A stretch of 64,000 nt of DNA. It comes from Octopus vulgaris. Its lineage: Eukaryota. A model generated the notes under the pieces. The model saw nothing but the letters and a program-made list of their open reading frames with translations. It was not told where the DNA came from and made no database searches. Made by a program: the position numbers and the translations under genes. This document shows positions 4,587-7,561 of the stretch, in pieces (positions within the stretch are counted from its first letter, which is position 1; each line of letters begins with the position of its first letter). The DNA lies in the NCBI GenBank assembly GCA_951406725.2, contig OX597824.1, positions 51,708,001-51,772,000 of the forward strand. Direction: 5' to 3'.

Positions 4587-4888
4587 CACCCACTCTTTTT
4601 TCCATCTTATACTGAACGTCAACCTAATATATTCTATGTGTACGCCCTTTTGACATTTGTTGTTTTATGGTTTATAATGTTCGATTAACATATATACACA
4701 TATACATACATATACACACGTAGAGTACATACATAGAAACAGGCACTTTATTGGCAAGAAATCTTGAAATTAAATTGAACAATGACAAACATACACATAC
4801 ATATATCTCTCTCTATATTTACACACACACACAGACATATATATATATATATATACTTTATTTAAAGCAGCTGAAAATTCAACAAAAT

Positions 4889-4926
4889 CTGTTACTCTGA
4901 GTTTCTCGTTGCCGTTCATCAGACAG
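4889..4926 (-). ncRNA. Minimal type I hammerhead ribozyme
   Basis: Minus strand reads CTGT-CTGATGA-A-CG-GCAA-CG-A-GAAA-CTCAGAG-TA-ACAG: stem I CTGT/ACAG, complete core, GUA triplet. Confidence 0.85.
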
Positions 4927-6069
4927 TTTTTGCTAGAATGGAACCGATATATCAATTCAATCCAGACTCTTACAAACGCTTCACCTTTTTTAAAAAATGG
5001 ACTTGTTTGACTGGCCCTTTAGAAATAACGGTCAATCTTCGAGCGATAAACAAAAAAAGAGCTCAAAAATATATGTATATATATATATATATAAAAATTA
5101 TAAAAATTATAAAAAATTATAAAATTCGAGGAAAAAACCTTACATTGAATAAAATACATATTGACGTTAATGAAGAAAATATAATTAATGCATAGAAATT
5201 AAAACTTATTATAAATATTACACTGCAATACATATTCATATTAAAGTGTACATATATATATCAACATACACAGAAGGATGCGTGCAAACGCCATACATAT
5301 ACAGACGTATAAATATAAATCTAAAATATACACACAAATGCATGCATACATATATGTACGCAATCTATCTCGCACGCAAGTTAAAATCATCGATGTAGCG
5401 TTTCTCATTTACTGAGTAAAGCTTAAGTAAGGGGGACGTAAAGTTGTATCAGTATCAGTTAGAGAAAAAAGCGAAAGAAAGGAAGAGAGAGAAAAAGGAA
5501 CGAAGAAGGGGGAAGGAAAAAGAAAAAGGAGGGGTGGGGAAAAAAACGAAATAAGAAAAATTATGTAACAAGCTGTGTAACCGCGTTATTGACATATATG
5601 GAGACAAGTATACAAATACACAAGTTCGAATGGATACATACACATACAGTCGTGTATGTGTGTGCTTAAGCACAAACATACGCTCATTTACACATACACA
5701 GATACGCATGCTTACAAATACATATCCACGGCTATACACATATTTATATAAAAATTCTAATTTTTGACAACATTGCTTTTTAAAAAAAGGTGAGTGCAAT
5801 AATGAAAAATACACGAAAGACATATAAAATACAACACCCTATTTTGGATCATCTATAAATTAAAAATCAAGGTAATCCTATACAATACAATAACATGAAA
5901 TAAACAAAGCCGAAGGTTTTTCCTAATGTATATGTAGAAATATAAGACTTTGCTATACGGAATGAAATCTGCATAGCGCGAAACAAATCCATCGTCGCGT
6001 TTACATACTAGTTCAAGAGTCAAAATCAAAATTTCAAAAATCAAAAATACAAAATATATACTCAATCCA

Positions 6070-6534
6070 TATGGTATATTTATATTTGACATTTTAAATT
6101 TGGTTGCGTGTCTACATAAATTCATTAGCTCACTTCTTTGATTCAAAGAATTATTGTCTTTGAATAAAATGTACAGTTTTTCTAATAGGCAAAGCTTGCA
6201 TTTAAAATTATTTCTGTGTGCTCCATGCCTGTATGATGCCGCTCTGTCCAGAATGCTCCATGTCACGTTGAAAGGTGGGGTTTCCTTTTCTTTTAGTTCC
6301 CAGACATATTTTGCTAGGCTGGTCCTCTTCCTATTCTCTGGGTATTTAAATGAATTTTTATGTGAATAAAATCGTGTTTTAAATGAATTTTCTGAAGCCC
6401 CTGTGTATATCTTGTATTCCGATGAGCCTTCTATTTGCACCTTGGCTCTATAAACTACTCCTTTCACTAGACATTTCCCTTCTAACGGACAGGAGTTTTC
6501 GTTTTTGAAATTGCATTTCTTAATGGGCTCGGCA

Positions 6535-6537
<3 letters not shown>
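6070..6537 (-). mobile_element. Penelope-like element GIY-YIG endonuclease domain, 5'-truncated at (TA)n
   Basis: Within ORF 5853-6653: KKCNF..CPLEGKCLVKGVVYRAKV...YTGASENSFKTRFYSH...CKLCLLEK...LNQRSELMNLCRH. This has the GVVY/YTG signature plus the Cys motifs typical of PLE endonucleases. Confidence 0.9.
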
Positions 6538-6570
<33 letters not shown>

Positions 6571-6790
6571 AGAATAATCTTACTTAGAAATGGATGCGTG
6601 CGTTCCGTCATATAATAAATTAATAAATAAAAGATATGCATATATACATACATATATGTACGTACCTACCTCTACATGTATATATACACGCATATATGGG
6701 TACAGGACACCAAAAAACGTCGAACACAATGAAAAACGAAAACATAAACACAACAAAAAATAGAGTACAGGACAAATAACACAAGGAAAA

Positions 6791-6926
6791 TTTCCCTTCT
6801 TCAGTCGCCATGGTTTCATCTACTCTGCGTTTCGAAGGTGAAGGCGATACGCATCTTCGATAGAAACTTTCCTTCCCGCGAAAAGCAAATTAAATAAAAT
6901 TTGAGATCTTTTTGCGGAGGGGTAAA
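6791..6926 (-). ncRNA. Candidate non-circularly permuted (pseudoknotted) hammerhead ribozyme, copy 1
   Basis: Minus strand order: TGCG-TA-TCGCC ... CCTTC-GAAA-CGCA ... GGCGA-CTGAAGA-AGGG. Stems I and III pair perfectly and four extra helices match copy 2 at 26629. Confidence 0.7.
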
Positions 6927-7294
6927 AATGGTAACAAAAACGAGTCCATATGAGAAGGCCTCCCAAGGTAAATAATGCAGTGATTTGTGTTCTAAAAAAT
7001 TACACACGTTAAGTTGGTGATCAAGATTACCTATATATATGTATATATCCAGGTTGGTACTGTAAGAGCTCTCAGATATAGTCCAGGTTCCGGCTAACTA
7101 CGTCTAGTAGTAAGAAGCACCAAGGATAGGTACTGCACATACTCGATACAGTAGAAATACGCGTCGGTCACTTTAACTAATTATGTAAATTATGCCGTAT
7201 AATTAACTGTGAAATTAAAAGAAAAATTTGAAAATGTAACAGTCTCCGTATTCTTTGTAATTGTTTTGGGTTAGTGTTAGGGTTTTAAATGCTT

Positions 7295-7551
7295 GATACT
7301 TATTCTATCGGGTTTTTTTGCCGATCCGCAAAGTTACGGGGTCGGAAACACACCACCACCAGTTGTCAAGCAGTGCTGGGGACAAATAGACAAAAATACA
7401 CACACACACACACGACGGGTTTCTTTCAGTTTCTGTCTACAAAATCCACTTACATGGTTTTGGTCGGTCCGAGGCTATAGTAGAAGATACCACCCCAAGA
7501 TGATCCCGAACCATACTGTTGGAAAGCAAGCTTCTTACCACACAGCCATGT
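7295..7551 (-). mobile_element. tRNA-derived SINE family B (internal microsatellite), partial
   Basis: Reverse complement of 27841-28240 (GGCTGTGTGGTAAGAAGCTTGC head, ACTATAGCCTCGG core, CCCGTAACTT). Confidence 0.85.
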
Positions 7552-7561
7552 CGTATGTATG

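Follow-up and report, generated by a model that had tools for sequence, protein, structure and literature searches.

We identified a predicted self-cleaving hammerhead ribozyme with a split core and non-circularly permuted blocks on the minus strand of a 64,000-nucleotide stretch of the Octopus vulgaris genome (the window), at positions 6794..6921. Its conserved blocks follow one another in the order S-G-C, the core is likely opened between A9 and G10.1, and the carrier, a repeat denoted F1, is likely a non-autonomous Penelope-like element (PLE) of the Naiad type. We regard this reading, taken as a whole, as quite probable. An earlier note had proposed a permuted hammerhead belonging to a Penelope element at this position; the permuted motif and its Penelope-type mobile repeat are upheld, but the adjacent GIY-YIG element drops out as the carrier.

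Read 5′ to 3′ on the minus strand, the motif has the order X′-H-II5′-Y-III′-UA-I′-II′-GAAA-III-Y′-I-CUGAAGA-X. In the available sections of Eckert et al. (2023, PMC10085705), the hammerhead is divided into blocks C, G and S, and a non-circular S-G-C order is shown to cleave. Block S of the window motif (6843..6853) consists of stem III′ (6853-6850), U16.1/A17 (6849-6848) and stem I′ (6847-6843), which gives a GUA site with a predicted cut at 6848/6847, and block G (6826..6838) consists of stem II′ (6838-6834), GAAA (6833-6830) and stem III (6829-6826). Stem I (6809-6805) and CUGAAGA (6804-6798) together represent block C (6798..6809) minus its stem II strand. The missing 5′ strand of stem II is displaced upstream (6875-6871, with G10.1 at 6875) and pairs with II′. 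Helix Y, the counterpart of the I-II interaction helix of type-SGC hammerheads, is formed by 6867-6859 and Y′ (6820-6813). Hairpin H (6917-6876, -10.5 kcal/mol) lies between X′ and stem II without a linker, and the junction is closed by X′ (6921-6918), which pairs with X (6797-6794), the 4 nt after A9; the partner sequence differs in families F2 and F6. The CUGAnGA, GAAA and UH core is complete in the window and retained across families, and the core bases, five helices, GUA site and cut position proposed earlier were all recovered where they had been placed on this strand. The block order is S-G-C and non-circular, not the circular C-G-S order of types I, II and III. Since the 5′ strand of stem II lies upstream of block S and the bases after A9 pair with X′, the core appears to be opened between A9 and G10.1.

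A strict S-G-C descriptor matched exactly two sites in the window, this motif and one at 26.7 kb, compared with a mean of 0.1 in shuffled sequences (n = 30). A search of the window against Rfam (E<=1) gave 154 matches; the 150 that were listed include no hammerhead and are miRNA and snoRNA entries driven by microsatellites. Folding with ViennaRNA gave z = -1.94 and a minimum free energy fold different from the one proposed; the score is modest because the proposed fold is pseudoknotted, and pseudoknots lie outside the ViennaRNA model.

The second site (26641..26760, plus strand, predicted cut 26694/26695) belongs to another family, F2, with the same split-core layout, in agreement with the earlier remark that the 26.7-kb copy has little in common with the first. 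The layout recurs with different helix sequences in five families of the genome other than F1. A BLAST search of 800 kb taken at round coordinates found 14 motif copies (5 F1-like, 9 F2/F3-like), and simple extrapolation suggests roughly 50,000 copies genome-wide. Family F3 forms a tandem unit of ~845 nt (L113:5843-7440, minus; L156-L175), and all 40 scored matches are 100% identical over the motif, which implies very recent activity. Further motif subfamilies, F4, F9, F8 and F1b, were noticed in flanking sequences (L006:2000-2090 minus; L185; L198; L274). A pattern scan of metagenomes gave one match, inside a bacterial-type coding frame, which we dismissed as chance.

To separate a split core from an unsplit one, we compared the helices within and between families. 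In the F1 group (8 sequences, 23 pairs, with slid alignments as controls), 98.9% of alignment cells are paired, against 41-49% in the controls, and two-sided changes are seen at 9 of the 23 pairs; preservation of the helices in a family alignment had been put forward earlier as a check on the motif. These changes are located in stems I and III and in hairpin H, which has them at 2 of its 4 base pairs. Stem II is invariant in this group and X shows no two-sided change, so the case for both helices rests on other families. Between families we compared the Watson-Crick fraction of each helix with its own partner and with partners from other families (8 representatives; F6, with no X found, and F7, with no match, were left out). 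The own and cross-family fractions were 0.94 and 0.46 for stem I, 0.97 and 0.57 for stem II, 0.96 and 0.29 for stem III, 0.79 and 0.52 for X, and 0.94 and 0.21 for Y. Stems I and III covary within the F1 group and stem II across families only, its upstream strand changing sequence together with its partner.

We also considered an ordinary type-SGC hammerhead, in which one A is bulged after A9, the next G-run pairs with the strand before GAAA, and the upstream strands are accessory or act as a switch. Such a register (G-C, G-U, G-U(+1)) is possible in F1, F1b, F5 and F8 with 93.5% of cells paired, although in the F1 group it amounts to 3-4 pairs, mostly G-U, and in the window copy to 3 pairs, two of them wobble, versus 5 Watson-Crick pairs upstream. 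It is impossible in F2, F2b, F3, F6 and F9, where a stem II directly 3′ of CUGAnGA could form at most 1 pair. An uninterrupted block C, with its stem II strand within 1-2 nt of CUGAnGA, was not found; F1 has only the weak alternative register. Stem II, the linker-free hairpin and X are kept in 45/49 intact F1 copies, 19/19 F5, 14/17 F6 and 9/11 F7 copies. The full junction is kept in only 4/13 F2 copies and in 2/2 distinct F3 contexts, in a test that is permissive (12/30 cross-family swaps also scored above zero) and for which the automatically picked F7 copy had a spurious X/H. Of the 6 S-G-C matches in the 800 kb, 5 form a stem II of at least 4 bp with an upstream strand and none with a strand directly downstream; the controls gave 0. 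The F1-group data alone are compatible with the unsplit fold; the other families decide for the split core, and we consider the ordinary type-SGC reading improbable.

The X/H part is ambiguous in F3, the youngest family, which despite its very recent activity has the least clear X/H junction of all families. An extra A between A9 and G10.1 may have a precedent in viroids, one that the literature passages did not confirm. By eye, the region between III and Y matches the standard kink-turn consensus in F2 and F7; in F1 the match requires the opposite orientation, and in F3, F5 and F6 there is none. A kink-turn is not treated as a defining feature.

The carrier F1 is a non-coding tandem repeat with a unit of ~800 nt. 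The window copy (6610..6941, minus) is 5′-truncated, covering unit nucleotides ~431-796 with an internal deletion of ~28 nt, and continues into a 44-nt tail (6565..6608, minus) that is the start of the next F1 unit. A (TA)16 tract (6537..6568) follows. A genome search gave 3136 first-look candidates, of which 40 were scored, all 96-100% identical. The copies share a common 3′ end beside (TA)n, have variable 5′ ends and form head-to-tail partial tandems; with its tail and microsatellite target, F1 shows the features of a non-autonomous Penelope-like element, and matching insertion marks are described for PLEs in the sections consulted of Craig et al. (2021, PMC8557442). No reverse transcriptase (RT) or endonuclease ORF was found in F1, only short low-complexity frames, and apart from inserted F1-like copies it has no sequence in common with the tested Naiad, Hydra-like or Neptune-like loci. 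F1 likely moves as a non-autonomous Penelope-like element of the Naiad type. F1 is covered by contigs of four runs presumed to be RNA, contigs of a kind that show neither ends nor strand. Inverted F1 pieces lie beside some main copies (L024:1708-1820; L081; L079), as described for PLE insertions.

Across the (TA)16 tract lies a GIY-YIG frame (6536-6066), which is real and on the same strand as the motif. It belongs to a separate, 5′-truncated copy of an autonomous Hydra-like PLE (4851..6538, minus) that includes a pLTR with its own canonical minimal type-I hammerhead (4926-4889, minus). The frame is the 3′ part of a 726-aa RT + GIY-YIG ORF, which resembles the Hydra clade by eye and sits in a 3.43-kb tandem unit. 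Pfam returned nothing for the GIY-YIG piece, for the intact 726-aa ORF (L176:1901-4078; E<=1) or for two Naiad pieces, which leaves this clade invisible to Pfam annotation. The clade labels used here are therefore drawn in part from motifs that we take to be characteristic of the PLE clades. In the other part they are drawn from resemblance to snippets of the alignment in PMC8557442.

The motif would be a pLTR ribozyme of this GIY-YIG element if the proximity of the two, 260 nt apart on the same strand, reflected common membership, as the earlier note had supposed. F1, however, occurs at 0/29 other loci of the 726-aa ORF family (1.5-kb flanks), the family has its own canonical hammerhead, and both the (TA)16 tract and the F1 tail lie in between. 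Conversely, a proposed search for GIY-YIG ORFs beside further F1 copies turned up no adjacent copy at 29 other F1 loci, with one distant match (35% identity, opposite orientation). On these sequence comparisons the GIY-YIG element is refuted as the physical carrier, and we give the pLTR reading almost no credence. F1 and the Hydra-like PLE abut the same (TA)16 tract, and their independent insertion is the simplest reading. The canonical and permuted hammerheads lie 1.9 kb apart in the window.

If the F1 RNA is cut at the predicted site before reverse transcription, genomic copies should record the cut in their 5′ ends, and element termini at this position had been named earlier as a check. We sampled copies chosen only by sequence downstream of CUGAnGA (30 F1, 30 F3); the samples are top-scoring matches that include the query and reference copies, and the F3 tandem copies are not independent. 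Among the F1 copies, 5′ ends fall at 0..+29 after the cut in 9/30, where the upstream rate predicts 2.95 (P = 0.0018), at -30..-1 in one, and at +30..+49 in none. Among the F3 copies, 6/30 end at 0..+29, 0 at -30..-1 and 0 at +30..+49 (expected 0.69, P = 5.6e-5). The termini thus show the looked-for excess just after the cut in both families. Three copies start exactly at +0 (one F1, one F3 and one unselected F2/F3-like), while most clustered ends lie 5-28 nt inside the cut and 21/30 F1 copies run through it.

Read-through in most copies, and the position of the clustered ends mainly at +5 to +28 and not at +0, would also suit a conserved RNA structure that does not cut, for instance a hammerhead derivative that binds the RT or makes it stall, with 5′ ends that cluster by RT stalling. 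Against this, all catalytic bases are kept in families whose helices differ. The 5′ edge of the cluster is sharp at +0, with 1/60 ends at -30..-1 and none from +30 to ~+50, whereas stalling should place ends at the 3′ edge of the fold or all through it. We judge such a non-cutting structure unlikely, somewhat more so than an ordinary type-SGC hammerhead, and retain the self-cleaving motif as the preferred reading.

The link to Naiads is based on layout. In the sections consulted of Craig et al. (2021, PMC8557442), Naiads are described as devoid of canonical hammerheads, no fold is given, and eight Naiads, including Naiad_Ovul, are flagged as 'HHR_half_core'. The Naiad_Obim and Naiad_Ovul consensuses available from that source end, by eye, in the split layout. 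The octopus Naiad has family F7 as its 3′ end, a sequence with 156 exact pattern matches in the genome versus 0 for controls. Among 30 loci chosen by the Naiad RT C-terminus, 17 have the motif on the same strand, 0.7-1.4 kb downstream, and RT motifs lie further upstream in many of these loci. The 3′ ribozyme layout is common to F1 and Naiad, and sequence homology between F1 and the F7 loci was not detected. The Naiad RT matches are decayed, with open frames of up to 292 aa in the top 30 and no intact Naiad frame among the matches.

We inspected part of the CUGAnGA occurrences in the 54 Naiad consensuses of the PMC8557442 supplement (54/62 for one variant, 10 each of 43, 25 and 23 for others). 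By eye, the split layout with other helix sequences is present in three near-identical Acropora consensuses and at four further places (supplement parts 9, 12, 12 and 19), among which file order indicates hydrozoan and cubozoan entries. Six places in the nematode-section Naiad consensuses of the same supplement read by eye as unsplit CSG. In supplement parts 13-17, A9 of one nematode-section Naiad is followed by one additional base, and a place in part 17 can be read as SGC in which three additional bases follow A9. Judging from their sequences, nematode-section forms with extra bases after A9 are possible intermediates to the split form.

An intact 753-aa ORF with RT, a C-terminal GIY-YIG and a cysteine linker was noticed at L417 (G000:C3:61674600-61678600, minus), and several copies have 753-aa frames. 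We take this ORF to be Neptune-like. No split-core motif was found in the ~1.7 kb downstream of it in one copy; in that copy a CUGAAGA lies 355 nt after the stop, with no clear GAAA partner.

In the mechanism that we propose, the RNA would fold a standard hammerhead core with A9 continuing into helix X, and this core would be joined by X, stem II and hairpin H in a four-way junction. Tandem or read-through transcripts would be cut after GUA, ~263 nt before the 3′ end of the F1 unit, and a PLE reverse transcriptase, an enzyme that F1 would borrow in trans, would prime at the 3′ end of the unit on nicked (TA)n. On cut RNA, the enzyme would run off at the cut and leave copies starting at +0 to +22; on uncut or re-ligated RNA, it would read on and produce the longer copies (21/30 in F1) and partial tandems. 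In a monomer running from cut to cut, X would shut the remainder of the unit off into a large loop and both ends would be held by several helices, an arrangement that would favour circle formation. As the Naiad RT matches are decayed and the F3 copies identical, either an intact Naiad went undetected or intact Hydra-like or Neptune-like ORFs act in trans; F1 may be mobilised in trans by the RT of the Hydra-like family. More broadly, we lean slightly towards the view that the hammerheads used by Naiads and their non-coding satellites are non-circularly permuted (as CSG in nematodes; in cnidarians and cephalopods, as forms in which a four-way junction opens the strand at A9/G10.1), that these would cut in vivo, and that they would circularise the cut-to-cut monomer into a template through several helices.

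In the available sections of Eckert et al. (2023, PMC10085705), type-SGC hammerheads (HRIMA-1 and variants) are known only from metatranscriptomes, type-CSG is known from two metagenomic examples, and block C (stem I, CUGAnGA and stem II) is assumed to be uninterruptible, with at most 1-2 nt after A9. The F1 motif resembles type-SGC (PMC10085705) in its S-G-C order, its short I′-II′ linker, its intact CUGAnGA/GAAA/UH core and an additional helix that connects the far sides of stems I and II, namely helix Y in F1. It differs in that the stem II 5′ strand and the Y strand lie 5′ of block S and in that A9 is followed by an inserted closing helix and hairpin. By sequence, then, the F1 motif would work like a type-SGC hammerhead yet lacks an uninterrupted block C. 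With type-CSG (PMC10085705) it shares the same reversed circle of blocks, and a tandem or circular F1 RNA would equal CSG/SGC with a long insert after A9; block C of CSG is, however, whole.

Among mobile elements, the Naiad PLEs covered in PMC8557442 resemble F1 in their (TA)n targets, partial tandems, 30-40 bp tails and 5′ truncation, whereas F1 is without coding capacity, and no homology to F7 was detected in its sequence. Non-LTR retrozymes and non-autonomous PLEs, as presented in parts of bioRxiv 10.64898/2026.07.22.740005 and PMC4209133, likewise consist of tandem non-coding units that each contain one hammerhead and are presumed to be mobilised by PLEs. The PLE hammerheads in the sections seen of PMC4209133 are type-I, often dimeric and weak in stem III, in contrast to the permuted and monomer-competent fold predicted for F1. 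Permuted hammerheads are not discussed in the main text of the animal-retrozyme preprint (bioRxiv 10.64898/2026.07.22.740005), where 'permut' appears only in a reference title. Searches of the openly accessible literature, in part limited to main texts, turned up no paper on the split form or on permuted Naiad hammerheads.

If the proposal is true, non-circularly permuted ribozymes, so far a feature of anonymous environmental RNA, would be present in many copies in animal genomes, the published assumption of an inseparable CUGAnGA and stem II would no longer hold, and the missing Naiad ribozyme would be accounted for. The role of PLE hammerheads would become directly testable with short synthetic RNAs and with the 5′ ends of thousands of insertions, which record the cut. 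At 7300-7560 and 26870-27280 of the window lie copies of an abundant interspersed repeat that recurs in many flanks. It may be an octopus tRNA-derived SINE, which it resembles.
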